From contig CM060733.1 of the NCBI GenBank assembly GCA_030704615.1, forward strand, positions 31,186,001-31,250,000: 64,000 bases of DNA, given 5' to 3'. Every line of letters starts with the position of its first letter. Position 1 is the first letter of the stretch. The notes below the pieces were generated by a model. The model was given only the letters and a program-made list of their open reading frames with translations. It made no database searches and was not told where the DNA came from. This document shows positions 14,721 to 54,038 of the stretch, piece after piece. The stretch comes from Takakia lepidozioides. Lineage: Eukaryota; Plantae; Bryophyta. A program made the position numbers and the translations under genes.

Positions 14721-15085
14721 ACCGGTGCTATTTGCAGACAAGAAGGATGGGACGTTGCGGATGTGTGTCGATTACAGGGCTCTGAATAAGGTGACTATCA
14801 AAAACCGGTACCCTTTGCCAAGGATCGACGACCTCTTCGATCGATTGGCAGGAGCGAAGTATTTCAGCCGGATCGACTTGCGCTCCGGCTATCATCAAAT
14901 TCGGGTGGCGGAAGGAGATGAGGAGAAGACCGCGTGCAGGACAAGGTATGGTTCATATGAGTTCTTGGTGATGCTTTTTGGGCTCACCAATGCACCAGCG
15001 ACATTTAGCACGCTGATGAACAGTTTTTCCAGGAGTGGTTGGATGACTTTGTGATCGTGTACATCGACGACATCTTGGTGTATTC
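14721..15085 (+). pseudogene. Chromovirus RT core, inverted relative to the adjacent pol
   Basis: [23 protein letters not shown]...[11 protein letters not shown]...[10 protein letters not shown]...VYIDDILVYS. It stops exactly where the minus-strand piece resumes (S-KTKEEHL). Confidence 0.93.
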
Positions 15086-16513
15086 AGATCCATTGCTTGC
15101 CCCAACACTTGACGACGTGATGCCTCAGAAAGAGACGACACCGCCGTGGTACCAGTGGTAAAACCCATTGCCCGCTCATGCTCGTCAGCATTAGGCTCCA
15201 CTAACTGCTGCAACTGAGCATCCCACAGGAGGCCAGGTCCACTATCCCGGAAAGCATGTGATCCTGGGAAGCTGAGCAGTGTAGATAATGCTGCTCGTGG
15301 TTGACCCACCTTGTTGACCACTGCCAAAGGCAAACGGTCATCGTTCTCATACACTGAGACTGCCTCCCTGTGTCCAGAATGCTATCCACTGTGAGATGTG
15401 CTGGCCGCTGCACCCCATCAAATGCACGCTTGAGCAGTGCGGGTGGCATCAAGTTAGTCCACCATAGCCGTGGACGATGAGCCCGTGACCCCATTGTAGC
15501 TGCATCTAGCAACATTGCTGACCCAAGCCACGACCGGACTTGATGCACACTGGCCATCACCCTGGCCTGAGAATCGCCCATCAGTGGCACATTCTCCAAG
15601 ATGTATGCTGGAGATACAGCTTGATGAAGCTGCAAGTGGCGCAAAACCCGCACCATCTTCCAAAATAGACCCGACCTCGAGTCTCGCAATCCATTGCCAT
15701 GCCCGGCTGATGAATGCCCTTGGCAGGGCCAACCTGCCACTACCAGATCAATGGAGCCAACCCGCTCCAAATCCTGCGCCCCTAGCAACGAAATGTCTGC
15801 TGGCAAGGCCTGCTGATATCCACGAATTGCAGACACCGACAACAACTCAGGGTACCGCTGCACCAATTGAGCAACATGGCGAAGTGAAACGTGTCGTGCA
15901 GTCTCATCCCTCTCCACATACAGGTAACGCCGAACTCGTACACCTGCCTGTAACACAGCAGCCAATCCGGTGCTGATCCCGCCAAACAAGTCCAGAAGAC
16001 AAATGCCTTCATCCGAATACTGCCACACAATAGGTGTGGTGTCCAATGGAGACAATTGAGATGGTCTTGATGCAATCCCCGCACTCTCCTCCTCTCCTGA
16101 CGGTACAAAAGCCTCCACCCAGGCTTGTTGCACCCGTCGATCAGCATCCCGCTGCAAATCCTTGCTCGTGCCCCACAATGGAGTCTAAGCAACCATGGTA
16201 GGCAACTCCGCCATACCATACATATTATCCTCCTCTCCCGGAGGTGGCATATCCTCTGAATGAGCGTTGCTCTCAAGCAACTCTCTAGGCCAACTCACTG
16301 CCGCTGTGAATGCTGCTAGTGTCGGCATCTTGCCTCGCTGGGCAACCGCAACTCCTCCTATGAACGTCACAGGGAGCTACACACGCCGGCCCTCCCCTGA
16401 CTGCCATGCAAGCCTATAGGAAGCTGACTCCTCCCAAAAATCCAGGATGAAGCCCATGGGGTACAACACTGCCCCACCAACCAGGACATCGTATGAGACC
16501 GCGTCTGTCACAA
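15086..16513 (-). pseudogene. DNMT-Gypsy protease C-terminus + DNMT3-like methyltransferase fragment
   Basis: ORF 15201-16178 retains LDLFGGISTG, VAGWPCQGHS, YILENV and RAHRPRLWW. There are upstream TAG stops and a frameshift near 15345. Confidence 0.93.
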
Positions 16514-29183: not shown

Positions 29184-29258
29184 TATACCAAGAGTTTGAA
29201 ATTAGAAGATGGCCTCTCAGCTACACACATTTACAGTAGGGGCCCATAAACTTGAATC

Positions 29259-31711: not shown

Positions 31712-32003
31712 TTTCTCGAGTGATAAAGAAGAAGAATACAAGCGCGAGCTCACAAATCTGAAGCATAAACTCATGCATATATAACCTCATCAATCAAATA
31801 CAAGTCAAGCCAAGTGCACCCCACGCCATGGGGAATCCGCACTACGGCGCCATAGCTAGGTGCGGTGAGGCTCAACTCGAGAAAAATGAGCCTCCCACGC
31901 TTGCCGTGAAGATAACACCTCCAAGGCCTAAATCTACCTTGACCCCTGGATTGACACTTGGGCCAATCCCAAATATCAATATATGAAAGCTACCTATTCC
32001 TAG
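31712..32003 (-). mobile_element. Subterminal 5' fragment of the DNMT-Gypsy family
   Basis: Near-identical to about 19335-19638. Confidence 0.85.
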
Positions 32004-35000
32004 GAGTCAGTTTCCTATAGGCTTGGATGGCAGTCAGGGGAGGGCCGGCATGTGCAGCTCCCTGCGACGTTCATAGGAGGAGTTTGCGGTTGCCCAGCGA
32101 GGCAAGATGCCGACACTAGCAGCATTCACAATGGCAGTGAGTTGGCCTGGAGAGTTGCTTGAGGGCAACGCTCATTCAGAGGATGTGCCACCTCCGGGAG
32201 AGCAGGATGACATGTATGGTATGGCGGAGTTGCCTACAATGGTTGCTCAGACGCCATTGTGGGGCACGAGCAAGGATTTGCAGTGGGATGCTGATCGACG
32301 AGTGCAGCAAGCCTGGGTAGAGGCTTTTGTACTGTCAGGAGAGGAGAGTGCGGGGATTGCACCAGGACCACCTCAATTGTCTCTATTGGACACCACACCT
32401 ATTGTGTGGCAGTATCCGGATGACGGCATTGTCTCTGGACTTGTAGGGGTCGGGATCGCACCGGGATTGTTGTTGTATTACAGGCAGATGTACGAGTTTG
32501 GCGTTACCTGTATATGGAGAGGGATGAGACTGCACGACGCGTTTCACTTCGCCATGTTGCTCAGTTGGTGCAGCGGTATCCTGAGTTGTTGCCAGTGTCT
32601 ACAGTTCGTGGATATCAGCAGGCCTTTCCAGCAGACATTTTCGTTGCTGGGGGCGCAGGCTAGTGATTGGAGCGGGTTGGCTCCATTGATCTGGTAGTGG
32701 CAGGTTGGCCCTGCCAAGGGCATTCAGCAGCCGGGCCATCCATAGCCATAGCAATGGATTGCGCGACTCGAGGTCGGGTCTGTTTGGGAGATGGTGCGGG
32801 TTTTGCGCACTTGCAGCTCATCAAGCTGTATCTCCAAACAACATCTTGGAACATGTGCCACTGATGGGCGATTCTCGGGCCAGGGTGATGACCAGTGTGC
32901 ATCAAGTCCGGTCGTGGCTTGGGTCAGCAGTGTTGCTAGATGCAGCTCACAGTGGGTCACGGGCTCATCGTCCACGGCTATGGTGGACAACTCGATGCCA
33001 CCCGCACTGCTCAAGCGTGCATTGATGGGGCTGCAGCGGCCAGCACATCTCACAGTGGAATGCATTTTTGACACAGGGAGGCAGTCTCAGCGTGTGAAAC
33101 ACGATGACCGTTCGCCTTTGGCAGTGGTCAACAAAGTGGGTCAACCACGAGCAACATTACCTACACTGTTCAGTTTCCCAGGATCGAATTATGCTTTCCA
33201 GGATAGTGGACCTGGCCTCCTGTGGGATGTCTCAGTTGCAGCAGTTAGTGGAGCCTAATGCTGACGAGCGTGAACGGGCGATGGGTTTTACCATTGGTAC
33301 CACGGCGGGGTGTCGTCTCTTTCTGAGGCATCACATCGTCAGGTGTTGGGGCAAGCAATGGATCTCAATTGCTTGACCTGATTATCAGCTTGGCATGGCT
33401 GAACAACGCAGAGTGCAGAGACACTTCCCTCGATGGTCTCTTTGTCTACCGAGCCGGTACAGGCAGTGAGTGGGGGCAAGTATGTGAGGACCACGGGGTG
33501 CAGGCATCCATGGCACACGTGGGAGGTGCTCGAGGTTCAGAGGGAGTTGGCAGCCAAGGCGGCTGTGATGGATGAGGTTGGGGATTCTTCTCGGGTTGAG
33601 GAGGTCCTCAAGGATGAGATGATGGGGCAGGATGAGGCCTTGTCATTGACCGAGCAGGCAGGGAGTACTGCTCAAGAGGTTGCGGCATAGCAACACGGGA
33701 CGCGTCTCTACCTCTAAGTCTGCTGGACTTTAAGGTTGCAGTTACGAAGGGCAATTGGGAGCCTGACATTGGACCTAATGTCACTAGAGAAGAGGGACGA
33801 CGTATACGGTGGTTCCTAAGGCTTACAGGAATTGCTTTGCCTCTCGTGCTACGGTGGAGGAGCATGAGAGACATGTTCAGGTTGTGCATCGACCGGGTTT
33901 GGTCATAGGGATGCGGATGGATTGAGTCGCAATCCATGCATGAGCCAGCAAGATGACACTGGAGCTCGGTGGCATGGTGAGTGAGATGGACGAGGAGATG
34001 GTGTCGGGAGGATGCATGCATATGCCTTTTTGTGTATCTTGGCATCGGGAGGTCAGGTTGGACCTACAACAGGGATGACTGTAGACGGAGTGTCTGAGGA
34101 CCCTGAGGCTATTGATGAGCCAGGTGGTGCCAGAGATATACATGAGGATTCGGTTGTGTTGGACTACCTCCGCACTGGAGACACGGCAGCTAGTGTGACT
34201 GTCAAGGAGAGGGATTGGATCCTACAACGAGCCAAGAGGTTCAAGTGGGAGGGGATACAACTGCTTCGAGGTGTGACGCACTCACAGTTTACTGCAGGGG
34301 CAGTATTGGTGGCGTGGTATGCATACAGAGGTGCAACAGTTTGTGGCTAGGTGCATGGTGTGTGGTGGAGTCTTGACTTTGCAGGACTGTTGCCACTGAC
34401 TACGCGCCACCACAGATATGTGTTGGTGATGGTGGAGCACTTCTCAAAGTGGATTGAGTTGGTTCCATTGCCTGACAAGGCTAGTGAGGGGGCTGCGTAT
34501 GCATTCTTGGATCGTGTGCTTAGCCGATTTGGCGCTCCAGCTGAGATACTCACAGACCAAGGGAGAGAGTTCTTGGGGGAGTTTCAGGCTTTGTGTGATA
34601 AAGCCTTGATAGACCACCGCACCACTTCTCGGGATCATCCTGAGGCTGATGGCTTGGCAGAGAGAGTTGTTCAGACTGTGAAGAGGGGTTTACGCAAGTA
34701 TGGCTTGTAGAAATGACACATAGGAGATTGGGATCTTCAGGTGCCTTGGTTAGCCTATGGGCTGCAGGTTCAACAACAGCATCACTTGCATCTTTCTCAC
34801 CATATTTCCTCTCTTTGGCCGAGAGCCGGATTTGCCTGCAGCCATTCGTAGGGACACTGCTCACGTCCTTAACCTGATGATCCGGACGTGTGGGTACGTG
34901 CTGTGATCAGCGTGCAGAGTTGTTCAAGAAAGTCATTGCCCATGGTTTTGAGAACCTTGTCATTGCACAACACCGTGATACGTTGAGGGTATGCCACTAT

Positions 35001-35880: not shown

Positions 35881-37659
35881 CTCTCTATCGGTTCTGATGG
35901 TTTCTATGGCACCTTTTAGCTAAGTCTTAGAAGCGCTAGCTTGTCTTCTGCCTTCGGTGTTTCTATGTGTTTTATATTCTTATTTCATCTCGCATTAGTG
36001 TCTCAAGTGTGCCGCTTTACTCCTGTGCGCCTGTCTTCCCTATAGAATGTACATTCCAGAGTAGTGCTCCTACGAGGTCTGGGCTTTGGGTTTGTTGGTC
36101 GAGGCAGGTGGCAGCTAATTTACGGAGGAAGTCATTGCAGATGAGCCCGACTTATCTTCAAAGGATTTTTGTGTTGGTTACAAGTGTGTAGAGTTTCTTC
36201 GGTTTGGGTGGTGTCTGTGAGCAGATACTCAGCGCGATCAGTTGCAGGGCCATCTATTTGAATTCTCAAAGAAGGCTTCTTCAAGCCTGTCCTATCCTCT
36301 CGGTTCTGCAATTATCATCCCCTCAATTCCAAGTCTCTAACCTTGGGTTTGGCTGCTTCCTGCTTTTGCTTGTGCGCTCTCTCCTTGGCTCGTAGTCTCA
36401 CTCGCAGTTTTTCCTCTTTCGTATTTAGTGTTATTTGGTGACATTCCCCGTTAGGAATTCCGCGCTTCCTATGTTGGTCTTGGTTAGAGAGTCAAGTTGG
36501 TTTCCGGTGATTTTTTTTCTCTATCTCTAGAGTTACGATGACGTTCCGGGGCAGCACCAGTGGTAGACGAGGACGCGGGAGAGCCCTGCTTCCTGTCAAG
36601 TTAAATAAGCACAGTGTGAAACTAACTAGAATAAAGCTAGTTATTTGTATTTAACACTTGGATTTAGGTCAAGTGTTAAATCAGGTGTCAAGTTTAGTTT
36701 GACACCTGAACCGTCTTATCTTCACGAGAGCGTCAGTCGCGCGGCTCATCTCTCTCGAGTTGAGCCTGCGCGACCGAGCTCCTTCATCGTTTAGAACTGA
36801 GTGTACTTATGATGGGAGGATAGGTTGTTGTGGGGTGGAGTCCCCATAGCTTGGGGTGCCCCTGGCTCGACTATTATCTGAAAGAGTGATGATGAGATGG
36901 ATTTCATGTTTCTTGTGTTAAGAGTGTGTTCTTAGCTTTCTTATCACTCGAGAGAGATCACCTGTCTAGTTTTTTTTCTTGTACTGCTAAGCTAGATAGA
37001 GTTCTTTTATGTTAGCACTATGTCGATGGTCGAGGTGAAGAGAGCGGCATGCTTGATGACAACGTAGTTCTCCAACTCGTCATAAGCCATACCAATCTCG
37101 TCCAAGAAGCGGTTTCCGTTTTGTTGTTGTTGCACAGGAGCAATGTATTTTGGAGGAAGTTGATTCGGGGCAGCAGAAGAATGTGTTCACCATAGCTATA
37201 AGGGGAAGACGGGATTCCACGCTTGCAAGCTACCTGCGGAAGCAAGCTGTGATCTAGTTCGAGTGCGAGGTTCTGAAGACAGACCTCGATCGCAATGATC
37301 TTGTCGAAAGGCTGTGCAGGGTAAATGATCCATAGCTACTTGGACGAAGGTCCTGAAACCACTGTCGTATAGCAGCTGTATAGCAGCTGATAGGGTTTCT
37401 CTCATTGCCAGTTGTAGGAGGGTGGTAAGCGCGTGCTCCAGAGATAGCTCCCTGCCTGAGCCGGAATTCCACCAGAAGAAAAACGGTTGAAAAACTGAGC
37501 TGCATGCCATCCGTGCAGCGGGGGAGTACGGTGGCAGACACCTTGGCTTGGTGGGCAGATCACAATTGTATGTTCGAAGCGCAAACAGGCAGTAGCGTTG
37601 AAGGCCAAGCTCCCGTTCACAGTGTCCATCATGGCTGCAGGGAAAAACATCCGAAAAGC

Positions 37660-37986
37660 TCCTACACAGGGTGACATTCACTTGCGTCCTGAACGCATGT
37701 GCCAGCCTAGGAGCTATTGAAAAAGGGCAAGGAGGTACATGCTGAGATCATCAAAGCTAGAGTTGGGCCAGATATCCCTCTTGAGACTGTCCTTGCCAAC
37801 ATGTATTCCAAATACAGAAGCATGGAGGACGCATGGTGTTTGACAATATGGCTCGACAAGATGTGGTCTCATGGAGCTAAATCAGTGCAGGATATGCTCA
37901 GCATGGTTGTGATAGGGAGGCTTTTGAGATGTATGTACAAATGCAATAGGGAGGGGTGCAGCCCGACATCATAACATTCATTTGCT
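37660..37986 (+). pseudogene. PLS-class PPR fragment located inside the element leader
   Basis: VTFTCVLNACASLGAIEKGKEVHAEIIKA...NMYSKYRSMEDA / VFDNMARQDVVSW...GYAQHG...GVQPDIITFIC, with a frameshift and stops. Confidence 0.85.
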
Positions 37987-39962
37987 TCCAGTGCATGTCC
38001 CACTCTCACCTGTACTCATTCAGATCGGTTGCTCCACTCACCGATTGCTCCATCTATCCATCTCTCATTCCATTTCTTCAGCAGCTCGACTGCCCGATTC
38101 GGGGTCGACGTTCATGCCCTTTTGAAGCTGGTTCCATGTCCAGCGCATGCTGTTGGAGCACCTGATAGCCCATCCACAATTGCAGTGGGGGCTGAGAGCT
38201 AATGCCTTCGAGGATTGGCTGATGTTCGTTTGGGGGGGGGCCTGAATTTCCTTGGTTCGGAGTACGAGCTGCCTTCGTCGCTGTGGATGGTGCTGGAGAA
38301 TCGCTTGAGGCTGGGGCTGGTGTGCACCGCCCTACTGGCATGCTGGATGTTGCAGGCGGGGGGGAGGGGCCTCCGTTGGGAGAAAACTCGGTCTTGTATG
38401 ATTGCATTTCCTGGGGCGATCGTTGGTGGTTACTATCTGGTCTCGTGCGGACTTGGTTTGGAGTGCTTGGTCGTCAGCGAAGTATTGCTCGTTAGAGATG
38501 TGCATGTCGCTGACTTCTTCGTCCCCTCCGATTGGCCTCAACTGAGCAGAGCCTTCGTCTTTGTTGCTCATCTTGGCCGTATCCTGTTTCACTAGAGTGT
38601 AGAGGTTGAGGGAAGCCTATGGGGTGCTAAGCCTGTTGAGCAGGGGTGTGTACTGTTGATACGAGCTTGGGTCAGGGAGCTACTTGGTTTAGAATGATAC
38701 AAGCGCGAAGGATCAAAGCCCCAGAGTCAGCATAGTCGGGGAACGGCCTCGGGAACCCGTAGATAACCAGGGAACAGGGAACCAAGACAAGTATTGAAAA
38801 AAAAAAAAAAAAAAAAACGGAGTTTTCTTTGTATTTGTTTTGTCTTATTAAATAAATAAATAAAGGGGAAAAGAAAAGAAAAATGTGTTATGTTTAAAGA
38901 GCCTGGTTGGTCATATCTTTATCAATGAGCTCCGTTTGACTCAGTTTTTGAGGGGATAACTGCAGAAAAGGGATATCTACCTATCTAGACCTGGTTTTTG
39001 TTTTTGGGACTCTGCTAAAAATCTATGGAATTTTTAGAGTGTGAGTGTGCCATGAAAAATCCACAATTCTGTTTCTAGAACCTGTTCTGGTCTACATGAG
39101 AGATAAATCTGGGGATGTACTCCTTGTATGGCTGGGGGAAATGAGGACGTAATTGAAAGGCATGTCTCTTCTCTTAGCCTGTGCACACAAGGGGACAGGA
39201 TTTATGTTTCCCAAGGAACTCAGACTGATTTGAGTGGAGAACAGTTGGACGAGTTGAGTGTTCAGTGAGCGGGAGATAGTAGAGTGTTGCTTTGTCTCTA
39301 CCTGGCAGAAAGAGGAGGAGGGTTGGTTAGAGCGAGCTACTGTAGCTGGGACAAGGTTAGTGGCAGGTTTCTGGACATAGATATACCTCCTACACCTTAC
39401 TATCATGCAGAGCGAGGCACTTTGAGAGAAGTCTGGCAATTGATAGCATAGATTAGGATTAGATCTTGCTGGGTCGGGCTTCTATTCTTCCCCTCCATCT
39501 CTGTACTATTTTCATTACCTTGTACTTGTAGTTGCCAAAGCCTCTCTTGGTGGAGGCCAGTCAGTCCGGGGTTTTGGGTTGGGATATTCTGCAGGTCAGC
39601 ACTGCAGATGGATTTTGGTGTGGGGGTGTTGATGTTTTGATTTCTTGTGTTTGGATCCCCCCCAACACCTGCATGCTTGACTGTGCGCCATGTTGGTTTT
39701 GTGTGGGCGCTTGCTTTCATAGGGATTAGGCCGGATTTGATCACCGGTCAATCCTACAATATGCTGTCGGTGGTGAGGCTGGAGTGATGACCAGCAAGAC
39801 CACCAGTGTTTCTTCTATGGTGAGGCTGGGTTGATGACCAACCAACCATAGGAGTTCTTGCGGTGGATGCAGGTGCAGGTGCCCTGAGCCACTGGGATAT
39901 GACCCTTAAACTGCAACACTGCCCACCCGTGTCACTATTAGAATTAGTACTAGAGCATTATA

Positions 39963-41618
39963 GTGTCACGTGGGGAGGTGCACATTGTGAGTGTCATCAC
40001 GGAGTTACCCAAGGGTTTTGAGGGGAGTACGGCTATAGGCAGTAACAATGAGAGTGGGTTCACAAGACGAGGTATTCGGTTCAGACCACCTTCGCCTCCA
40101 CACTCAACTAGTGTAGAGTCAGACACAGACTCGGAGGCTTCATCAACAGGTGTACAGTTTCATTCGCCATTGTTGTCGGACGACATGGAGGAGATGTATG
40201 GAGCTACCAAGGAGCCTCGTAGGTACTCTGGAGCTGTGGGCACAATCGAGTTGGATGACTTTATCCAGGAGTTCGACAGCTGGTGTGATTTGCAGCAGAT
40301 GCGCAATCCACAGCTATTCACCCCATTCATGGCGTGGAAGGGACTGTTCCAGCATTTGGAAGGCCCGCCTATGGACGATTACCACGAGTTCAGGCGAGGA
40401 CATGAAGCAGAGATTGAGGAGTGGAGGATGTATTGGTCACCTGACTACGTCTCCATTACTCGAGGCACGACGCGACCAGTAGCTGCATCAGTACCAATAT
40501 CTCCCACTGCCAGCACTAGTAGTGGAACAAGTAGTGCCGGTACTTCTGCAGGTGGTACCAGTTCAAAATGTGCTACTACTCCTCCTGCCATGACTACAAC
40601 ACATGTGCCTAGATTCAACCCGGTGGTGGAGTTCTTCCAGGAGTTGCGGAGGAACTACCAAGGTGTACGGATTGAGAAGCTGCGAAGTTTGCAAGACTTC
40701 CAGCGCAAACTCAGTGAGAGCCTGCGAGAGGCGTACACTCGTATGAGGCGCTTGATAAGTGTGACCCAAGGGGTTACTGAAGCTCAGGCAATCCAGTTTT
40801 GGTATGGAATTCTGGACAAGGAGCTCAAGAGAAAGGTGCGAGATGCAACCCTGTTACAAGTAGCCCAACCCACATTAGCAGATGTGTTTCTGCTGGCTGA
40901 GCGGATTGAGCTCAACATGATGGAGGAGCGAGTTGTTACCATTGGATTTGGCAAGGACATGCCTGCACGAGGCGCAGCTGCCAGCCCACAGGCACAAGGG
41001 ACTGCCCAACAGCGTGGTCAGGGGGGCAAGGTTTCCCAACCCAAGTTCCATGGAGCTTACAGGGGAACTCAGGTGCAGAGGCCCGTGGCATCTTTTGCAG
41101 GCCAACAACAACCAGGGGTGGTATGTTGGACATGTGGAGGACCCCATGTCAAGAAGATTTCCCAGAGAGTGGCAAAAGGCTGGCACAAGCACAGCCTGCA
41201 CAGTTGCAGTGTGGGCATTGTGGCAAGTATGGGCATGGAGATGCCCAGTGTTATATCTTGCATCCTGAGTTACGCCCAGGCCAGTTCCAAGGGAACAATG
41301 GTGGCCAGGGGCGGTGGACCAGCCCAGAGAGGACGAGGTCGTCGGGCACGAGGTGCAGGCCAAGGGCAAGCTCAACATGGCCAAGGACGCGGAGGTCAGG
41401 GTGTTGACCAAGGCATGGCCAACCGGCTTCAGCAGCTAGAGCAGAGGCTCGCTGCCATGGCTACAGCTCAGGCGGTACCGGCTCCCAGGCGGGATAGTCC
41501 ACCTCCTACGCCTGAGGGAGGAGATATGGGAGGCATGGGATTCATGTGGAGCAGCACTACCACTAGTGCAGGTGGAGTCTGCTGCAGCTGTGACTCGAGG
41601 AGCAGCACGAGTTCCTGA
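39963..41618 (+). CDS. Gag (frameshift-disrupted) with two zinc knuckles
   Basis: Retrotransposon gag-like QRKLSESLREAYTRMRRL, knuckle CWTCGGPH and, in the 41123 frame, CGHCGKYGHGDAQC. The true start codon is uncertain. Confidence 0.75.
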   Translation: MSRGEVHIVSVITELPKGFEGSTAIGSNNESGFTRRGIRFRPPSPPHSTSVESDTDSEASSTGVQFHSPLLSDDMEEMYGATKEPRRYSGAVGTIELDDFIQEFDSWCDLQQMRNPQLFTPFMAWKGLFQHLEGPPMDDYHEFRRGHEAEIEEWRMYWSPDYVSITRGTTRPVAASVPISPTASTSSGTSSAGTSAGGTSSKCATTPPAMTTTHVPRFNPVVEFFQELRRNYQGVRIEKLRSLQDFQRKLSESLREAYTRMRRLISVTQGVTEAQAIQFWYGILDKELKRKVRDATLLQVAQPTLADVFLLAERIELNMMEERVVTIGFGKDMPARGAAASPQAQGTAQQRGQGGKVSQPKFHGAYRGTQVQRPVASFAGQQQPGVVCWTCGGPHVKKISQRVAKGWHKHSLHSCSVGIVASMGMEMPSVISCILSYAQASSKGTMVARGGGPAQRGRGRRARGAGQGQAQHGQGRGGQGVDQGMANRLQQLEQRLAAMATAQAVPAPRRDSPPPTPEGGDMGGMGFMWSSTTTSAGGVCCSCDSRSSTSS

Positions 41619-41972
41619 GCCACGAGGTGCAGAGGTGGAATTGGATTCACAGCGTGGGGAGGCAAGCCGTCAGGCGAGGCTTCCCTAGTCATTCACATTG
41701 GCGGAGACTGTGTCGAGCTATCCATGGCACCTAGTTCTTGCCCGACTGTTACCGAGGCGGAGTTACTATGCCATTGGGGAGAGCTACACGTGCAGCACTG
41801 ACACCAAGGCTAGTGCAGTCGATGTGTTTTTGGGGGCAGCCACCTCTGTGTGTCAAGCCCCACTATTCTCGGCAACCATGATTGCGACGCCGGGGGTAAG
41901 ACCAGCTGCAGTGTTTAGACTAGCAGCAACACTCTGTGAAGTGGGGAGGTCACTTCATCTTTTGCGGAGTTA

Positions 41973-44159
41973 GTGGAAGGTGTAGTGGCAGAGGGATCCT
42001 CGGATTTGAGGGTCAAGACTGCCACGGCTGCGCCATGGCAAGCTGCAGCTGCCAAGTTGACGGAGCTGCCAGCTAGGCCAGCCTTTGAGCGCGCCATGGT
42101 AACACCTGGAGTTGTCTTGTTAGACAACCAGGATGACATTTTCTCTTTGAATGGACCGGCAGGCAAGAAGTACCGGCCACTGCGGGTCTTGTTGGACTCG
42201 GGAGCTCAGCCATTGATGTTGGGCAGAGCTGCTATTGCAGGTTTGGGCCTCATGGAGGCGGATATGGAGCCTTGTCTTTTCCAAATACAGACATCTCTGG
42301 GAGGATCAGAGCAGGCTTGGGGCATGACATGGCGTGAGTTGGCCATTAGACTGCAGCCGGATCATCCTATAGATGGCTCAGTGATGCGAGCCAAGGCCAT
42401 TGTGATAGACGCGGTCTCTTACGATGTCCTCATTGGTGGAACAATGTTATATCCTATGGGCTTCACCCTGGACTTTTGGGAGGAGTCAGCATCCTATAGG
42501 CCTGGATGGCAGTCAGGGGATGGTCGTCGTGCACAGCTCCCTGTGACATTCATTGGGGGTATTGTGGCTGCCCAACGGGGCAAGATGCCAACACTAGCCG
42601 CCTTTACAGCTGCAGTTAGTTGGCCTAGAGAGTTGCTGGAAGGCAATGCCCATGTAGAGGATGTGCCACCTTTAGCAGAGCAGGATGACATGTATGGTAC
42701 GGCGGAGTTGCCTGCCATGGTTGCTCACACTCCATTGTGGGGTACGAGCAAGGATTTGCAGCAGGCTGCTGATGGACGGGTACAACAAGCCTGGGTAGAG
42801 GCCTTCGTACCGTCAGGAGAAGAGGAGAGTGCGGTGATTGCACCAGGACCACCTCAGTTGTCGCCATTGGACACCACACCTCTTATGTGGCAGTGCCCGG
42901 ATAAAGACATATGTCTTCTGGACTTGTTTGGCGGGATCAGCACTGGATTAGCTGCAGTACTGCAGGCAGGTGTACGAGTTCAACGTTACGTGTATGTGGA
43001 GAGGGATGAGACTGCACGACGCGTCTCACTGCGCCATGTTGCTCAGTTGGTACAGCAGTACCCTGATTTGTTGCCAGTGTCTGCAGTGCGTGGATACCAA
43101 CAAGCCTTGCCAACAGACATTTCGTTGCTGGGGGCGCAGGATTTGGAGCAGGTTGGCTCCATTGATCTGGTAGTGGCAGGTTGGCCCTGCCAAGGGCATT
43201 CATCAGCCGGACATGGCAATGGATTGCGAGACTCGATGACGGGTCTGTTTTGGAAGATGGTGCGGGTTTTGCGCCACTTGCAGCTTCATCAAGCTGTATC
43301 TCCAGCATACATCTTGGAGAATGTGCCACTGATGGGTGATTCTCGGGCCAGGGTGATGGCCAGTGTGCATCAAGTCCGGTCGTGGCTTGGGTCACCAGTG
43401 CTGCTGGATGCAGCTGCAGTGGGGTCACGGGCTCATCGTCCACGGCTATGGTGGATTATCTTGATGCCACCCGCACTGCTCAAGCGTGCATTTGATGGGG
43501 TGCAGCGGCCAGCACACCTCACAGTGGATAGCATTTTGGACACCGGGAGGCAGTCTCAACGTGTGAGACACGCTGACCGTTTGCCTTTGGCAGTGGTCAA
43601 CAAAGTGGGTCAACCACGAGCAACATTACCTACACTGCTCAGCTTCCCAGGATCCCATGCTTTTCGGGATGGTGGACCTGGCCTCTTGTGGGATAGCCAG
43701 TTGCAACAATTAGTGGAGCCCAATGCTGACGAGCGCGAGCGAGCGATGGGTTTTACCACTGGTACCACGGCGGTGTCATCTCTTTCTGAGGCATCACATC
43801 GTCAGGTGTTGGGGCAAGCAATGGATCTCAATTGCTTGACCTGGATTATCAGCTTGGCTATGGCTGAGCAGCGCAGAGTACAGAGTACACTTCCCTTCAT
43901 GGTCTCCTCGCCTACCGAGACGGTACAGGCAGCGAGTGGGGGCAAGCAGGTGAGGACCACGAGGTGCAGGCCGCATCCATGGCACACGTGGGAGGTGCTC
44001 GAAATTCAGAAGGAGTTGGCAGCCAAGGCGGCGGTGATGGATCACGTTGGGGATTTTTCTCGGGTTGATGAGGTCCTCAAGGATGGGATGATGGGGCAGG
44101 GTGAGACATTGTCACTGACAGAGGAGGTAGTGGTCACTGCTCAAGAGGTTGCAGCATAG
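41973..44159 (+). CDS. Aspartic protease fused to a DNMT3-like C5 cytosine methyltransferase
   Basis: Protease LLDSGA (Asp at 42195) and DVLIG. DNMT at about 42909-43850: motif I LDLFGGISTG, II YVERD, IV AGWPCQ (43182-43190), VI ILENV (43317-43325), VIII AHRPRLWW, IX ERERAMGF, X VLGQAMD. Confidence 0.95.
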   Translation: MEGVVAEGSSDLRVKTATAAPWQAAAAKLTELPARPAFERAMVTPGVVLLDNQDDIFSLNGPAGKKYRPLRVLLDSGAQPLMLGRAAIAGLGLMEADMEPCLFQIQTSLGGSEQAWGMTWRELAIRLQPDHPIDGSVMRAKAIVIDAVSYDVLIGGTMLYPMGFTLDFWEESASYRPGWQSGDGRRAQLPVTFIGGIVAAQRGKMPTLAAFTAAVSWPRELLEGNAHVEDVPPLAEQDDMYGTAELPAMVAHTPLWGTSKDLQQAADGRVQQAWVEAFVPSGEEESAVIAPGPPQLSPLDTTPLMWQCPDKDICLLDLFGGISTGLAAVLQAGVRVQRYVYVERDETARRVSLRHVAQLVQQYPDLLPVSAVRGYQQALPTDISLLGAQDLEQVGSIDLVVAGWPCQGHSSAGHGNGLRDSMTGLFWKMVRVLRHLQLHQAVSPAYILENVPLMGDSRARVMASVHQVRSWLGSPVLLDAAAVGSRAHRPRLWWIILMPPALLKRAFDGVQRPAHLTVDSILDTGRQSQRVRHADRLPLAVVNKVGQPRATLPTLLSFPGSHAFRDGGPGLLWDSQLQQLVEPNADERERAMGFTTGTTAVSSLSEASHRQVLGQAMDLNCLTWIISLAMAEQRRVQSTLPFMVSSPTETVQAASGGKQVRTTRCRPHPWHTWEVLEIQKELAAKAAVMDHVGDFSRVDEVLKDGMMGQGETLSLTEEVVVTAQEVAA

Positions 44160-47100
44160 CAACCATGGGACGCGTCTTCTACCTCTAAGCCTGCTGGACT
44201 CAAGGTTGCAGTCACGGAGGACAACTGGGAGCCTGATGTGGGACCTATAGTCACCGGAGGAGAGAAACGACGTATATGGCGGTTCTTGAGGGCTTACAGG
44301 AACTGCTTTGCCTTCAGTTTGAAGGACTTAGGAGCACTGAAGGGTCAAGAGATTCGCATTGAATTGGCTACTGACGCGCCAATCTTTCAGAGACCCTATA
44401 GATACAGTGACATGGAGAGGTCCTTGATTCAGATGAGAACTCAGGACCTTTGGGAGGCTGGTTTGGTGGAGCTATCTTGGGGAGAGTATGCTTCAGCCAC
44501 AGTGATGCCACCCAAGAAGGATGTCTATGGCAATTGGATGGAGAGACGTATGTGCGGTGATTACCGGCCTGTAAATCGTCAGACCAAGTCCGATAGGTAT
44601 GCCATGCCGACACCAGAGGAGATTTTTGATGCCATTGGGTATGCCAAGGTCTTTAGCACATTGGATTTACAATCCGGATATCACCAGTTGCCGATCAATG
44701 AGGCGGATAAGCAAAAGATGGCATTCTGGGGGATCAATGAGCACGGGAAGGATTGCCTATACCAGTGGCGGTTCTTACCATTTGGGCTTAAAAACGCTCC
44801 TGCTGAGTTTCAAAGAGTCATGGACAGGATTCTAGCAGGGGTGGAGTTTGCTCGGTGCTACATAGATGACATCATCATCTTTAGTGCTACGGTGGAGGAG
44901 CATGAGAGACACCTTCAGGGGGTATTTGAGCGCTTGAGGGCGCACGGATTGAAGTTACATCTGGGAAAGTGCAAGTTTTTCCACAACCAGATTGAGTATC
45001 TGGGTCACATGATATATCCTCGAGGATTGGGGGTACAACAGACTAAGGTAGAGTCCATTGCACAGGTTTGACGCCCCACGGATGTGAGCCGAGTTCGAGC
45101 TTTCATGGGGTTAGCAAACTATTATAGACGGTTTGTTAAGGGATTTAGTGCCATTGCAAAGGCTCTAACCAAGCTGATCAAGGTGGACCAGGAGTGGCAG
45201 TGGGAAGATGAACAAGAACAAGCTTTTCAAGAGCTCAAGGCAAGGTTGACCTCGGCGCCCATCTTGAGACGGCCTATTAGGGGGCGTCATTTTCAGCTGC
45301 ACACAGATTGGAGCATGTTGGGGCTTGGAGCGGTGCTCACACAGGTGGATGATGAGGGAAGAGAGTTCGTAGTGGCTTATGCTAGCCGCTCAAACAACGT
45401 TGCAGAGTCTAAGTATAGCTCATATGAGGGAGAATGCTTAGCTGCAGTGTAGACCGTGACACACTTTAGGTGCTATCTATACGACAATCTCTTCACCCTT
45501 GTCACGGATCACCAACCACTCAAGTGGTTGATGGAGTCAGACAAGCTTACGAGGAAGCTTGCACGGTGGGCACTCATCCTTCAAGAATATGACTTTCAGG
45601 TTGTGCATCGACCGGATTTGGTCAATCGCAATGCAGATGGGTTGAGTCGCAATCCATGCACGAGCCAGCAGGATGACACTAGAGCTCGGTGGCATGGTGA
45701 GACGGACGAGGAGATGGTGCCCGGATGGCATGCATCTGCATTTCTGTGTATCTTGGCAGTGGAAGGCCAGGTTGGACCTGCGATCAAGTGTCTGAGGACC
45801 CTGAGGCCAACAATGAGCAAGGTGGCGCCAAAGATATACATAAGGATTCAGCTGTGTTGGACTATCTTCGCACTGGAGACACGGCAGCCACTGTGACTGC
45901 CAAGGAGAGGGATCGGATCCTACAACGAGCCAAGAGGTTCAAGTGGGAGGGGACACACCTGCTCCGAGTGTGGGAGGATGGTCGAGTGAGGATTGTGCCT
46001 CACCCAACACAGCGGGCACGGTTAGTGCGGCATGCCCATGAGGAGTTGGGGCATTTTGGGGTGTGACGCACTCATAGCCTACTACAGGGGCAGTATTGGT
46101 GGCGTGGTATGCACACAGAGGTGCAACAATTTGTGGCTAGGTGCATGGTGTGTGACAGGGTGCGTGCTTCATTCAACGCCCCTACTCCACAATTGCACCC
46201 TCTTCCGATCATGGGATTGGGCTACAGGTGGAGTCTTGACTTCGCAGGGCCATTGCCACTGACCATGCGCACAACAAGTACGTGTTGGTGATGGTGGAGC
46301 ACTTCTCCAAGTGGATTGAGTTGGTTCCATTGCCTGATAAGGCTAGTGAGGGAGCTGCGTATGCATTCTTGGATTGTGTGCTTAGTCGATTCGGTGCTCC
46401 AGCTGAGGTACTCACAGACCAAGGGAGAGAGTTCTTGGGGGAGTTTCAGGCTTTGTGTGACAAGGCCTTGATAGACCACCGTACCACTTCTCGGGATCAT
46501 CCTGAGGCCGATGGCTTAGCAGAGAGAGTTGTTCAGACAGTAAAGAGGGGTTTGCGCAAGTATGGCTTGCAGAAGGGACACCTAGGAGATTGGGACCTTC
46601 AGTTACCCTGGTTAGCCATGGGCTACAGATTCAGCAAGCAAGCATCACTTGCCTCCTTCTCACCATACTTTCTTCTCTTTGGCTGAGAGCCGGATTTGCC
46701 TACATCCATTCGCAGAGAAGATGCTACAGTTCTTAACCTTGACGATCCGGACGTGTGGGCACGTGCATGTGAGCAGTGTGCAGAGTTGTTCAAGAAAGTC
46801 ATGCCCATGGCTTTCGAGAACCTTGCCATTGCACAACACCGTGATACGTTGAGGTATGCTACCATACGTGTGGGGGCTATCATCCTGGGGTTCGGAGATT
46901 CAACCCTGGTGACTATGTCTATCTGCAGCAGACTGCTCCTACGACTTGGATGTGACTGCAGGACGTGTTATTTTGAGGGTTCGAGAGGTCTTGCCCTCAG
47001 GCGTCTTGGTCTTGGAGGGTCGGGATGGCATAACTTGGAGGGACCATGTGCGTAATTGTGCGCCATCTCACCTTCCGAATGTCGATGGTAGGATTGACCC

Positions 47101-47275
47101 AAACATGGCAGTGGTATCTGCAGGTTTGAGGTGCATGTTGTGTGGGTCTGCTAGAGGGGCAGCCACCATGCTGGTGTGTGATCGATGCTCTAGCGGTTGG
47201 CATATGGGATGCTTGACTCCCCCTCTTGAGATGGTTCCGGATGGGGATTGGTTATGTCCACATTGCATTGGATAG
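44160..47275 (+). pseudogene. RT - RNase H - integrase - PHD finger (premature stops and frameshifts)
   Basis: RMCGDYR, LDLQSGYHQ, PFGLKNAP and YIDD (44859-44870). RNase H HTDWS and SYEGE. Integrase HHCC, SLDFAGP/LTDQG/GLAER. PHD C4HC3 at 47132-47272. Confidence 0.95.
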
Positions 47276-50200
47276 TGGGAGTGGATACAACCATGAAAGG
47301 CTAACAAGAAACGCAAGGCCCAGCTACTAGGAGACCTTGAACACACGAGGTTCTGGCTCAAGTTCACAGATTGCAAGACGGCGACTAACGATGGGGCTAC
47401 TCTTGTACCCGGCCTCTTGGTCTATAGAGTTTGAGTACAATAGGGACAGTGATAGAGGACTTAGTACGGCTGTGGCTATTACATCTTGTAGCTATCTGGA
47501 GTTAGAGGGACCTATCCACCAGCTAGGGGGGCGATTGTGGCAGACTACTTTATTGTGCATATATGTGTGGTGTGGTTTGGACAGCGATGTAGTTGTGTAG
47601 CGATACGTATGCGCACGACATTCCTTTTATGCGCGACAAGGGTAATGGTAGAGGTTGGGGCTTCCAGACGGGATTCCAGATTGGCTTTTCTGGGTATACC
47701 TCTACTTCCTCCTTTCCCTCTCTGTTGGGTAAAGGTCTGTTCCATGTGGCTTCTCCTCTTTTATCGTCCGATGCTGAACTTTAGCCAGTTCAGTCGGATC
47801 TACTGGACGTTGATGAACAAATTCACCCCATCAACATGGAGACAGTTAGAAATCAGACTGCCAAGATCTAATCCAGGGGAGCTCTCTTGCATTTTCCTGG
47901 TAGGTCAATGGATCGTAAATGGATGAGAGAGTGGGTTTTTGAGCATTTGGGTGGTGATGGGCAATTGCGACAACTTTTCTGCATCTCCATGGGTAGGGGG
48001 TTTTTTACGGTGATGTTTGAAACGCAAGCTGCTGCTACTTGGGCTCTGTCCTTTAATCCTCACCTGTCTTGCCGCGGGCTTGCCACAAAGTTCATATTTT
48101 TCCGTGGTCCCAAGACTTGGGTCACAAGAATGGTACCTGTTGTAGTTCGCGCATTATCTCCTTGCCCTTTCTGCCTTGTCAATATCCTGCCTCATTACCT
48201 GAGATAGGCACAAGATTTGGGGACTATCTAGGTTGTTTAAGTGTGTTTGATCCAGAGGCCTCCAATTCCATGGTAGCAGAGATGACTGGTTGGGCCCTCT
48301 TTCCAACATCAGCAGAGTTAGGGATGTTTCTGCTCCCAAAATTGTTGTCTTAATGCCGGACTCGGCCATCGTCCCCAAGGCAATCAGGCTCCCCTCTTTG
48401 GTCGCGTCTTTTATCACTGTAGCAGTGTATGAAGAGAAGTTCTCCATACTTGTCACGGATGTAATGGCGTTGGTCATTTTAAGCGGAGTGCCAGTTTTTT
48501 AAACGGAAACGTGACTCTGCTGCTGCCTCGGTTCCCCTGCCTCCGATGGGCTCTCCTCTGCACTCTCCCTCTCCCTCTCCTCCTCTACCCCCAATTCCTC
48601 CCTCTTCCTCTCATGTGCTGACTCTGGCCATCAACCAGCTGGTAATGACCTCCTCTCCCCCTGCATCTAGGTCTCCTCAGGCCTCCAAATGTCAAAGGAC
48701 CCCTGTTAAATATGCAAATCCCCTAGGGTCTCCTCGGATGGGTCTTTGCATTTCTCCCAGTATTGATATTATGGAGAAATCGCTTCTCCCGCTGGTCTTT
48801 TCAATTTCACAGTTCTGGGAATCCACGAGTCCTACCTTTTAGGATAGTTTGGCGTTGCGTTGTCTCAGGCTTCCGTCTTTTAGCGATCTCCAGATAGCTG
48901 CAATGAATGCGTCCTGGAAATGAACAAGTAGGTTGTTGGGAACAAGTAGTCACCATGGATGGAACACTGCCCCTTTGACTATCATTACCGCAGGATTTTG
49001 GGTGGAGGGGGGACGACAGTTGACCGTCGACGTAGCAGGTGGTAGCGGCCACGCGGGTGGGATTTTGCGGCGGGGGGCAATGCAGGGGTTGGAGTCGGGG
49101 GCTTGTGAGGCCCTCCCCAAAATGCCGACGAACACGGGGATGGCTCGAATGAGCTGGCCCTGGCAAATAATGGGAAACCTCGACGTGGCCCGGAAAACGT
49201 CGCCGGATTCAGGCGAAATTCCGGCCACCGATTGCTTGACCTGGAGGAGGCCGGAAATTTCACAAAATCCCACATCCCAAATGCAATTTAGGGAATTTTG
49301 GGGAAATTCTTGGGCAGGCTTGTGTAGTTCTTGGCCTATGAGGGACTGACCGTTGGAATTCCCAAATGAAGGAGAATTTGGGGTCCCAATGGGGCCCATA
49401 TTTCCTTTGCAAATTCTCTTTTTGGACCCCCATTCCAATCACATACAAAGCAGCCCCGCTTTCATTTTGGCAGATTGGGGTGAAATTTGGTGTGAGGGTT
49501 TGGGATTGTGCACTTCACAGGAATATAGCACTTTTTCTCCCAGGAAAATTTGGGATCATGGATAATTTGCTTGGTCAAACATGAACTTTTGCGTTGTTTT
49601 TTCTATTTAAAAAAAAATGCACCGTCTTCAAATGTTATAATCTCCCAAACTACACGGTGGAATCTCCCTAAATTTGGGGGGCTTGTGCATCTTGTAGGTA
49701 GGAAGCAGTTTATACGGTTCATCCACGTGGATGAACGTTGGTGGGCAGGTAGCCGCTGACGTGTGAGGGTGGGTCCCGGAATTGTCCAAAAATCCAAAAA
49801 CACCTCTCGTCCTTTAGGGGTTAATCCTCAACAAAAGAAAGATTGAAAGTGGCCAGCTTGCACCTCTGGTTCGGATAGAGCCCATTCCTGAAAGGGGGCA
49901 GTACCTGTAAAGGGAAAAGGCTCTTATGAGGTAGTGGATATGTAGAATGTCGGGGCATAACCTTGCTAGACAACGACATGGGATATCGAGACATGCAGGG
50001 TAGGAGTCATGGAGGTATTGTGTGGTCGGGTGGTCTACCTTGAAACGTACTTGCATTGTTACATACATTGTTAACGATTACAGTTCTTCGCGTTATCCGT
50101 CACGGTTCGCCTTGTGTTTGGGCCTTATGGCAGCCTATGGACTTTAAGGGTTTTAATTTGTTTCCCTTCAATGATCTTAATAAAGTTTATCCAGGGCCAC

Positions 50201-52098: not shown

Positions 52099-53175
52099 TT
52101 ATCTGCAAATCTTCTCTCTTGGCAGGTCAAGGATCATTGACCAGTTGGTATTACTGGATGCACTTTCTTCACGTGCAACCACTTTACCTTTGTCAATCTC
52201 CCCCTCAGCAGCCCCTCCCTGTTCTGGGATCAGAGGCTCCTTTGAGAATCTGGCTATGGTGACCCCAATACAGGTATCAATGAAGTCCTTTTCAACGAAA
52301 TCCTCCACAAAAACCTGCAGCCGGTCTCCAAGTCCTTGCCTAAAAGCTTCAGACACAAACAAGCGGGCATAACCCCGGATCCGATTAGTGACTGGATACA
52401 CACACATCACGGGGCCGCTTACTTGGGGAGTGGCTGTGTTTTCGACACGGTAAAAGTAGCTTCTTTTGTCATTGGGTGGCTGCTTCCCGAGGTTGTCCAG
52501 GTTGCAATTGAACTTGGTGAGAGGAAGATCTGTATCCATCCAATCATCTTTCAAGTATGCAGAGCTCCATAGGGGGCTGCCTGGGGAAGGGACTGGTGCC
52601 TTTCGGGGTTTCCACACACAGAAGATTCTCTTAGGGAGCAGTTCCAACAAGGGTTTGTCAAACATTTTCTCATCTTGCAGGATCAGATAGTCCCCAAGCT
52701 GCTCAATAAGCCATTGATCAAAGTTCGGCGGGTCCAAATGCTGGCACCCTGTTCGAATCTCGAGAATAAGGAACTCAAATTTTGTTTCTGCCAAAAACTT
52801 CTTGATATCATTCACCACCACACCCACCTGGTAGCTGGTTAAAGGGCCGTGACACACTTTTCTGTTCTCCTGCACGCGAATGTCCAGCACCCGAGCCCCC
52901 TTCACAAGCTGTTGATAAATTGAAAGCTTCTGGCATTGCGCAAATGGCCTGGAAATGCCAGGAAAGCCCATCCTGTTGGTGGCAGAATCATGTGTGCCCG
53001 GCCACACTAAGTCCCGCACCTTCATTTTATCTAACTGCAGCGTGGCCATCCATTCCTTGTGATTTGGGTGCTGGTAATTGGATCCTGGAAAGTTGGTGCC
53101 CTGTGCCTGCTCCCTCATTTTCAGCTGCTTCTCCTCTGCTATCACACTTTTCTGTTTTGCAATCTGGCCCCCCAT
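52099..53175 (-). CDS. PI-PLC X-domain / PLC-like phosphodiesterase
   Basis: Intact 358-aa ORF with VWPGTHDSAT, AQCQKLSIYQQLVKGARVLDIRV, VCHG and YRVENTATPQ motifs. Confidence 0.92.
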   Translation of the reverse strand: MGGQIAKQKSVIAEEKQLKMREQAQGTNFPGSNYQHPNHKEWMATLQLDKMKVRDLVWPGTHDSATNRMGFPGISRPFAQCQKLSIYQQLVKGARVLDIRVQENRKVCHGPLTSYQVGVVVNDIKKFLAETKFEFLILEIRTGCQHLDPPNFDQWLIEQLGDYLILQDEKMFDKPLLELLPKRIFCVWKPRKAPVPSPGSPLWSSAYLKDDWMDTDLPLTKFNCNLDNLGKQPPNDKRSYFYRVENTATPQVSGPVMCVYPVTNRIRGYARLFVSEAFRQGLGDRLQVFVEDFVEKDFIDTCIGVTIARFSKEPLIPEQGGAAEGEIDKGKVVAREESASSNTNWSMILDLPREKICR

Positions 53176-54038
53176 GCTTGTAATCTACCACTGGTGCAAT
53201 GGAAACAAAGGCAAATAATTACGAATCCTATCTTTAACCCATATTTCTCTGCAACTCTGATTCCTGCGCAGAAGCACAAGCCCTGAGCTGGCAATGAAAC
53301 CTCTCTCTCTCCCTCTCTCTCTCTCTCTGCAGACAAGGACAGATGCCCAGCCTAACCAAGGACAAATTGAAATGTTACGCTAGATTCAGGTATATAGTAA
53401 ATGTCAACATTCAACAAGACTACAGAAGTCGAGATGAAATTGAACATCACAAAAGTACAGCATCTCAATGATCGACATAGAGACGCTCACGCAGACCTTT
53501 GACATGCAACGCAGAGTTGTTCGCGTGAGGGCACGCAGAAACAAGCCACACTGCCCCTGGGACCACACGATTACCCAACCCCCCACACACCTTTCCAATC
53601 TCCCTCTTCCGTCGTGGTTTTGAACTTCGAAGAAGAAAACTGCAAGTTCTGTAAGAGAGGATGGGTTTCTCTCATGCCACAGATCCAGTCTCGTTACAGG
53701 AGCAGCGAGACGGTTTGACGTGCGTGGACGTCTATAAACGGCCGACGCTCACGTTTGCATGGTGCCGGAGCTGCTCCGGCACGTCCGGTTGTCTTCCCTA
53801 CAGCCGCCAGAAACCCTCCGACGTTGGAGGGCATTGTAAACAAGCCTGGAGCAGGTGCAGGCAGAAGAGAGAAATTCAACAGCCTGGTGCTACCGCCCAC
53901 AAGGCATGGTGGCATACAATTGTGAGAGAGAGGAGTTGTTGGGAGAGAGATGATGTCGTGAGTGAGTAGGCAGCTGGGGAGGCACATGAAAAAGTGGGTA
54001 AGGCATAGAAGAAGGCAGGGCCAAGGGAATTTCCTGCT

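Follow-up and report, generated by a model that had tools for sequence, protein, structure and literature searches.

The closest described system to the element presented here is KnitGypsy-Dnmt3 of Klebsormidium nitens, which has been published with DIRS-like repeats given in a legend (PMC5890265), so that capture of a DNMT3 methyltransferase by a Gypsy element is already on record. In the accessible parts of the literature, the survey table of that paper covers seven land plants, with no liverwort and no Sphagnum, and KnitGypsy-Dnmt3 is cited under 'streptophytes' in PMC12344493 and bioRxiv 10.64898/2026.05.21.726589. As to other retroelements, the enzyme of SymbioDIRS-Dnmt3 methylates CG de novo in yeast (PMC5890265), and the EpiLTR methyltransferase, sister to DNMT4, is accompanied by DAM and a chromodomain (bioRxiv 10.64898/2026.05.21.726589). 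Since 2018 the role of such retrotransposon-borne DNA methyltransferases has stayed unsettled, owing to hosts that are hard to work with. Here we describe an element of the bryophyte Takakia lepidozioides, located in a stretch of 64,000 nucleotides (contig CM060733.1, positions 31,186,001 to 31,250,000; hereafter the window). It is probably best explained as a Ty3/Gypsy element of the KnitGypsy-Dnmt3 lineage with the order gag, protease (PR), DNMT3, stop, reverse transcriptase (RT), RNase H (RH), integrase (IN) and PHD finger, in which a leaky stop would supply DNMT3 in a Gag-like excess and the complementary DNA (cDNA) would be methylated prior to insertion. Coordinates are listed in Table 1.

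An earlier reading made from the letters alone (below, the sequence-only reading) had described an open frame of 728 amino acids leading from an LLDSGA protease into a complete C5 cytosine methyltransferase. Frame, motifs and coordinates bear this out: the frame 41940-44159 comprises 739 codons (728 counted from 41973) and ends at the stop 44157-44159. The profile search proposed there returned PF00145 (DNA_methylase) with an E-value of 2.9e-11 and 43.8 bits at a cut-off of 22, and motifs I, IV, VI, VIII, IX and X are intact in canonical I-to-X order. With phmmer against solved structures the domain scored 45.6 bits for DNMT3A, 24.1 for DRM and 17.9 for HhaI; a 66-sequence profile gave 88 bits for DNMT3A, 46 for DRM, 30 for HhaI and 27-28 for DNMT2. 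The AlphaFold model of the domain (pLDDT 94.5) has a TM score of 0.74 to DNMT3A (6f57), and every listed rank of the fold search was a DNMT3. Sequence scores, profile and fold thus agree with the earlier assignment: the domain is of the DNMT3 type and non-permuted. Identity as a plant DRM was rejected on the unpermuted motif order, the lower sequence scores and the fold ranks, with DRM similarity confined to the part carrying motifs I-IV; a bacterial origin was likewise rejected by sequence scores and fold ranks.

For comparison we used the window copies and 80 metagenome loci (the best 80 of 120), here numbered with L; database proteins are numbered with P. The ratio of nonsynonymous to synonymous substitutions (dN/dS), also suggested by the sequence-only reading, was calculated for the DNMT domain by the method of Nei and Gojobori and ranged from 0.07 to 0.23 in five of the six computable pairs: 0.23 (0.13-0.34) between the main and the second window copy, 0.12 for both L016-L018 and L016-L020, 0.07 for the window copy and L004, and 0.20 for L001-L004 (for the window copy and L001 synonymous sites are saturated, and no ratio is computable). 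One pair of a second architecture, RT-RH-DNMT-IN-PHD (see below), gave 0.07. Two observations weigh on the other side: the decayed and near-identical pair L002-L004 has a ratio of 0.99 at a dS of 0.05, and selection on DNMT is weaker than that on RT (0.05-0.07). The DNMT domain evolves under purifying selection, which, together with the homologs and related loci, upholds the earlier view of a family trait rather than a one-off capture.

There is good reason to expect an active DNA C5 methylase, as predicted from the sequence. It has to be kept in mind, as a point against, that the K. nitens domain gave no methylation in yeast, a result called inconclusive by its authors (PMC5890265). The same result would suit the idea of a domain that is no DNA methylase but is retained for a structural or DNA-binding role, or has RNA as its substrate, as would the outcome of strict regular expressions, which among 92 full-length domains detected PC in 65 and ENV in 78. 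However, the assay likewise showed no activity for human DNMT3B (PMC5890265), decayed copies and divergently worded motifs are among the misses of the motif count, and all catalytic motifs are intact in the window copy, L016 and Marchantia P0004. With fold and sequence nearest to DNMT3 and DNMT2 far lower (27-28 bits), we regard a non-methylating domain as very unlikely.

Downstream of the domain, RT (PF00078) of the main copy follows in the DNMT frame after one stop (44157-44159), just as the sequence-only reading had it. That reading had also placed DNMT inside the polyprotein, of which the position between protease and RT holds, whereas the conserved stop in readthrough context puts DNMT on the Gag-protease side. 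The order PR-DNMT-RT was found in 31 of the 80 loci, and 28 of these (not L008, L009 and L034) reach the junction. Because a stop interrupts the junction in all 28, either 28-35 codons ahead of the RT core or at the equivalent position, and 27 have it as stop-CAR-YY (CAACCA, CAGTTA, CAATCA or CAACCC; the remaining one is followed by TAGCCA), we consider this stop a feature and not decay. These loci are not 28 events but represent about six lineages; where lineages were compared, their synonymous sites are close to saturated. The full CARYYA hexamer is present in L001, L016, L018, L020 and L071, and CARYYC in 22 loci; in the window, TAG CAA occurs in all three copies covering the junction and the full hexamer in two of them. 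As a control, the stop-CAR-YY context was seen at one of 79 other in-frame stops from seven loci. A chance nonsense mutation was rejected, the stop being kept in 28/28 loci and its context being rare elsewhere. In the intact L016, gag to PHD forms one frame of 2,417 codons in which the junction stop is the only stop, and L020 has one stop in 2477-7804. The linker of 327-450 nucleotides keeps its frame in six lineages, with one stop (two in L022) versus 3-11 in the other frames. Among database proteins with protease and full DNMT, 30 of 34 are without RT, and 25 end 60-140 amino acids past DNMT.

CARYYA stops are said to have been noted earlier in other retrotransposons (SIRE1). Tobacco mosaic virus, like further viruses of plants, has a CARYYA 3' of UAG as its readthrough signal (PMC4132726). 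By comparison, it is quite probable that a minority of ribosomes read through the conserved UAG-CARYYA stop; Gag-PR-DNMT would therefore be the main product and RT-RH-IN-PHD a minor extension. Several findings weigh against readthrough. Of the 27 motif-bearing loci, 22 belong to a single family, some of them being one insertion recovered from more than one assembly, and this family has the hexamer CAACCC, with the sixth base off consensus, and TAA in 8/22. An in-frame ATG two codons past the stop in this family (L004) would permit reinitiation, and no common stem-loop was found 3' of the stop (z -0.09 to -2.74). P0068 combines DNMT and RT in one open reading frame (ORF), yet it falls inside a 20-row RT clade with stop-bearing elements. 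The stop was read in window and metagenome DNA, not in that of Marchantia, and the land-plant gene models P0007, P0011 and P0049 continue into RT, probably via predicted introns.

If the stop were a true end and its context incidental, pol would be made separately, by splicing, reinitiation or an internal promoter. ATG codons in frame 2, 4 and 13 codons past the stop (L004, L022 and L020, respectively) are in line with this, and Ogre elements reportedly splice across gag-pro/RT. In Candida Tca2, an example of another way past such a stop, a promoter lies at the junction, and the flanks by themselves do not bring about readthrough (PMC2194720). On the other hand, the window copy, L001 and L016 lack an in-frame ATG within about 50 codons, a crude pattern search revealed no common donor or acceptor positions across the stop, the linker (GC content 0.47-0.58) is open in frame on both sides of it, and CAR-YY is kept across lineages near synonymous saturation. 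We judge separate production of pol to be rather unlikely; even so, DNMT would still sit on the abundant Gag side.

Under the favoured readthrough scheme, transcription would start from terminal repeat A and translation would mostly run up to the stop. Gag, DNMT, RT and integrase would be released by the protease, and within the particle DNMT3 would be in Gag-like excess over RT and integrase. On balance we lean towards cDNA of the element itself, inside or close to the particle, as the substrate, such that a new copy would arrive marked like host heterochromatin. PHD fingers of the CHD4, KDM5 and PHF21A type prefer unmethylated H3K4. The best PDB matches of the finger encoded here are CHD4, KDM5B/KDM5A, PHF12 and PHF21A, and by analogy the chances are about even that it guides the integrase to H3K4-unmethylated chromatin. 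Integrase and PHD finger would then insert the copy into silent chromatin, and the benefit would be a copy that resembles host heterochromatin from the outset. Compared with the plant Gypsy lineages of REXdb (chromoviruses, Phygy, Selgy, OTA), the PHD finger takes the place of a chromodomain; the main text of PMC6317226 has no mention of PHD or methyltransferase.

Alternatively, the excess DNMT, once freed from its precursor, may act in trans or as a brake and not on new cDNA, methylating host chromatin or genomic copies and thereby limiting or shaping transposition. Gag-like production would exceed the need of one cDNA, and the slowing of transposition is one option raised in the accessible text of PMC5890265. 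The elements' CpG depletion (observed/expected ratio 0.28-0.69) also points in this direction, as do C-to-T changes private to single copies, which are more frequent in CG and CHG than in CHH, but the CpG depletion equals that of a host-gene stretch in the window (0.52), so that host enzymes explain it and methylation by element and host is not told apart. Moreover, the DNMT domain is without a chromatin reader of its own, and the family is very abundant, since one public run has 35,339 contig records over a 3.6-kb stretch with 30/30 bins covered. We therefore hold action in trans or as a brake to be unlikely. Contig depth ratios of DNMT to RT (1.03, 0.82 and 0.75 in three runs) cannot rank gene parts and carry no weight.

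The main copy, 36594-47620, is a dead insertion of the form A-internal-B, dead because gag, RNase H and integrase all change frame and because stops interrupt it at 45069 and 45450, positions that are sense codons in the related locus L001. Its order gag-PR-RT-RH-IN with a DDE integrase is that of Ty3/Gypsy elements, as are the TG...CA ends and the short target-site duplication (TSD), while the protease and gag matches are weak. The gag frames of the window gave no Pfam match; they are 64-66% identical to the N-terminus of the Marchantia proteins P0003/P0004, and residues 1-300 of P0004 resemble PF03732 (Retrotrans_gag) clusters (score 0.93), with a weak Pfam result for P0003 (E 0.023). The protease of the window copy had no Pfam match either, and its homologs match PF13650 below the cut-off (E 1e-4 to 2e-4). 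The integrase of L016 has 34 residues from the second D to the E (hand count), where 35 are usual. The long 5' region of the main copy includes a poly-A run (38794-38818), perhaps the end of a nested non-LTR insertion.

In departure from canonical Ty3/Gypsy elements, no direct pair of long terminal repeats (LTRs) flanks the main copy. Instead, split ends (A...B or A...B-A-B) are seen in L004, L023, L037 and the window copy. Repeat A of the main copy matches the 5' ends of the copies at 2587 and 19673 (minus) at 71-78%, with left flanks that all differ, and its repeat B matches that of the copies at 5259-5343 and 29261-29343 at 83%. The layout of L023 is A1-internal-purine tract-B1-GC-A2-B2 with AAGG on both sides; a 4-bp TSD is thus present in both elements with both ends (AAGG in L023, TTCC in the main copy). 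In 10 loci (8 insertions) repeat A starts sharply at TGTCA without B upstream; the last bases of B are GACA, and the flanks beyond them are unrelated. The B-GC-A joint forms the palindrome GACAGCTGTC, perfect in 13 of the 80 loci and always downstream of pol, versus 0-3 occurrences in ten shuffles of the 567,757 bases; 10 of these 13 belong to the distant architecture RT-RH-DNMT-IN-PHD. Every integrated end observed maps to the palindrome. A purine tract 110-120 bases before it is also found in L004, L016, L020 and L023, and because B follows this tract, B plus A may be taken as an ordinary repeat unit, whereby both integrated forms would go back to circles with one or two repeats, opened within the repeat unit at the palindrome.

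The split ends around the palindrome fit integration from a circle, and comparison of the ends inclines us, somewhat more than evenly, to think that the cDNA circularises and the integrase opens the circle at an internal GACA-GC-TGTC palindrome. A one-repeat circle would yield A-internal-B and a two-repeat circle A-internal-B-A-B, and cuts after CA on each strand would leave two-base overhangs as in processed retroviral ends. The two A|B junctions observed differ from each other, as circle junctions may. Against a circle stand the 22 of 36 PHD-bearing loci that have no palindrome within 3.5 kb (short contigs or B-ending forms) and the near-duplicate nature of the palindrome loci L050, L053 and L054. 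L017 and L019 represent a rearranged copy in which an inverted piece of the protease region lies beside an A|B junction with about 15 additional bases retained.

As regards the ends only, reverse transcription of a DIRS/PAT-like kind is a possible alternative: it would make a linear cDNA with A and B ends directly and without a circle, and short forms would arise by B-B recombination. The layout A1-B1-A2-B2 defines some tyrosine-recombinase elements, and the TSD would likewise survive if two B copies recombined after insertion. However, the ORFs of L016 matched no tyrosine recombinase family (rve and H2C2 were matched), a purine tract precedes B1, a site from which plus-strand priming would let an ordinary repeat begin with B, and the palindrome of the second spacer is kept even in the distant architecture, in which A and B share little else.

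Homologs were found in bryophytes and algae. Of 77 long homologs, 18 are from Marchantia polymorpha, one from Calypogeia fissa, two from Sphagnum and two, by name, from Closterium; shorter homologs (best 120 of 219) add M. paleacea, Riccia sorocarpa and further Calypogeia and Sphagnum sequences. The Pol search (best 120 of 177) included K. nitens P0271 (PR-DNMT-RT-RH-IN), and a Coleochaete transcript protein is among the Pol relatives. No vascular-plant name occurred among the matches listed, and none of 22 pattern matches in viral contigs is a relative. Identity of the window DNMT is 73% with liverwort sequences, 67% with those of Sphagnum and 45% with K. nitens P0271, and that of the window RT 75-76% with liverwort sequences and 43% with P0271. 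P0099 and P0330 are family members labelled as bacterial (Obscuribacterales, Synechococcales), likely eukaryotic contigs binned as bacteria.

Trees of DNMT and RT were obtained with quick and FastTree searches and drawn from the midpoint, the quick DNMT tree holding element-borne domains only, without rows for host DNMT3, DRM or DNMT1. The window DNMT falls into a 22-row clade (support 99) with liverwort and Sphagnum proteins, nested in a 46-row clade (97) whose members, except Marchantia gene models, end after DNMT. Window and K. nitens elements are together in a 64-row DNMT clade (97) and a 79-row RT clade (99), and by this measure both genes would share common descent with the algal element. 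The architecture RT-RH-DNMT-IN-PHD (most of L035-L079; P0043, P0046, P0047, P0051, P0054 and P0061), in which DNMT follows RNase H and has no conserved stop behind it, is separate in both trees; PHD finger and palindrome are common to both architectures. It appears, from sequence comparison, that the DNMT module was moved within pol or captured twice. In the decayed L009 (8001-9560), the DNMT end is joined to the integrase C-terminus and PHD, with the RT-RH-IN core deleted; an open DNMT-PHD fusion was rejected here since this DNMT has stops. The related Pol proteins P0301 and P0303 carry PF05869 (adenine methylase) and a PHD finger before the integrase core and resemble the DAM-LTRs in the accessible part of bioRxiv 10.64898/2026.05.21.726589.

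Both further window copies announced by the sequence-only reading were recovered (Table 1), as were several fragments. The one at 31325-31708 on the minus strand continues through integrase and PHD into B and stops near 29249. In two family copies, repeat A is separated from gag by arrays of a 10-base GGGCTGTGAG-like unit (2748-3724 and 16806-18082), which are not present in the main copy. An unrelated chromodomain Gypsy element (rve, SH3, Chroma; 12487-15054), with part of its RT inverted, adjoins the second DNMT copy. Host genes in the window encode a PI-PLC X-domain protein (52099-53184, minus), ribosomal protein L12 (54009-54707, plus) and a DUF1997 protein (59013-59495, minus).

Table 1. 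Features of the DNMT3-bearing element and its relatives in the window (positions 1 to 64,000)
Feature	Position	Strand	Basis or remark
Main copy
Left TSD, TTCC	36590-36593	+	identical 4 bases at 47621-47624
5' terminal repeat A, starts TGTCA, 3' limit approximate	36594-36892	+	terminal match to sister copies
gag, frameshifted	39954-41618	+	knuckle-like CxxC part in frame 40910-41407
Aspartic protease, LLDSGA active site 42189-42206	42075-42530	+	motif; homologs
DNMT3-type C5 cytosine methyltransferase, motifs I-X intact	42900-43865	+	PF00145, PDB matches, model
LDLFGGISTG	42918-42947	+	C5 methyltransferase motif
GWPCQ	43179-43193	+	C5 methyltransferase motif
ENV	43317-43325	+	C5 methyltransferase motif
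AHRPR	43431-43445	+	C5 methyltransferase motif
ERERAMGF	43731-43754	+	C5 methyltransferase motif
GQAMD	43812-43826	+	C5 methyltransferase motif
Conserved stop and hexamer, TAG CAA CCA (UAG-CARYYA readthrough context)	44157-44165	+	copy comparison
RT, DNMT frame	44259-45068	+	PF00078, E 7e-32
RNase H, broken by stop at 45450	45072-45599	+	PF17917/PF17919
Integrase core (Gypsy order RT-RH-IN)	46240-46686	+	PF00665, E 3.2e-13
C-terminal PHD finger	47099-47269	+	PF00628, E 2.9e-11
G-rich purine tract, polypurine-tract-like, immediately 5' of repeat B	47521-47534	+	position, sequence
3' terminal repeat B, ends GACA, element end	47535-47620	+	followed by TSD
Right TSD, TTCC	47621-47624	+	equals left TSD
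Other copies
B-GC-A palindrome GACAGCTGTC	5253-5262		3' end of another copy (5248-5820, minus)
Second copy: partial protease and DNMT, one frameshift	15082-16514	-	85-93% amino acid identity; repeat A starts 19673 (minus)
Fragment: DNMT-RT linker, TAG CAA CCA, RT start	31325-31708	-	sequence match to main copy
Third copy: decayed DNMT, many frameshifts, junction stop (hexamer one base short), RT start	32002-33842	+	

Our literature search found no land-plant description, family readthrough or circle model, subscription papers lying outside it, and the available passages of PMC8616336, PMC10952607, PMC3441728, PMC6317226, bioRxiv 10.1101/363937 and 10.1101/2021.02.12.428880 hold no such account; bryophyte rows might stand in trees or supplements of PMC12344493 and bioRxiv 10.64898/2026.05.21.726589 or in the supplementary figures of PMC5890265. 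What we would add to the published capture is the land-plant range, a dose-setting stop and palindrome-centred ends, the latter two on the strength of comparison. Members with intact motifs exist in Marchantia polymorpha, a plant for which mutants, gene editing and methylomes are at hand. If the enzyme dose is indeed set by a recoding signal, this would mean that selection acts on the amount made and not on presence alone. Split ends round a conserved palindrome, if true, would imply a DDE integrase that routinely uses circles and an integration route different from that of canonical LTR elements, and would explain how an abundant family can escape plant reference sets and programs that look for LTRs. 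In bryophyte annotations, counts of host methyltransferases are also contaminated by DNMT3 domains that belong to elements. Whether all these traits form one epigenetic kit of an old green-plant lineage that stayed alive into land plants, with DNMT3 loaded by readthrough at a capsid-like dose, circle-methylated cDNA, palindrome opening by a PHD-integrase and pre-silenced insertion, is doubtful, though worth proposing.

As far as the cited sources were accessible, the element compares with known systems as follows. Host PpDNMT3 and MpDNMT3b of seed-free plants have a non-permuted DNMT3 catalytic domain as well (PMC10952607, bioRxiv 10.1101/2021.02.12.428880), but these bryophyte genes stand alone, whereas the domain described here is intronless and inside an element. 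SymbioDIRS-Dnmt3 and EpiLTRs share the retroelement-borne cytosine methyltransferase (PMC5890265; bioRxiv 10.64898/2026.05.21.726589) and represent other retroelement classes in other hosts. With the plant-virus UAG-CARYYA signal (PMC4132726) the element has in common the in-frame stop, the CARYYA 3' of it and, as a prediction here, a ratio of short to long product. Tca2 and VdLTRE5 (PMC2194720, PMC3441728) are of the Copia type, and their leaky stop follows gag and lacks CARYYA; in our case the stop follows gag, protease and the captured enzyme and would thus set the methyltransferase dose. Foamy-virus integrase cleaves the palindromic junction of 2-LTR circles (PMC1180852), and here, too, a DDE integrase may open a palindromic circle junction to processed ends, except that the foamy-virus site is the LTR-LTR junction of ordinary LTRs and the present palindrome is inside the repeat unit. 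Unlike DIRS/PAT elements, L016 has a DDE integrase and no tyrosine recombinase. With KnitGypsy-Dnmt3 the element shares a Gypsy RT-RH-IN, a non-rearranged intronless DNMT3 between protease and RT, purifying selection and a DIRS-like split repeat layout (PMC5890265), for which the parts consulted of that paper contain no mechanism. It differs in its land-plant hosts, in the PHD finger, which goes without mention in the main text of PMC5890265, and in the stop conserved in 28/28 loci, the review file of PMC5890265 placing the algal DNMT and RT in one ORF; on account of this last difference we consider it a variant rather than a plain member of the KnitGypsy-Dnmt3 lineage.

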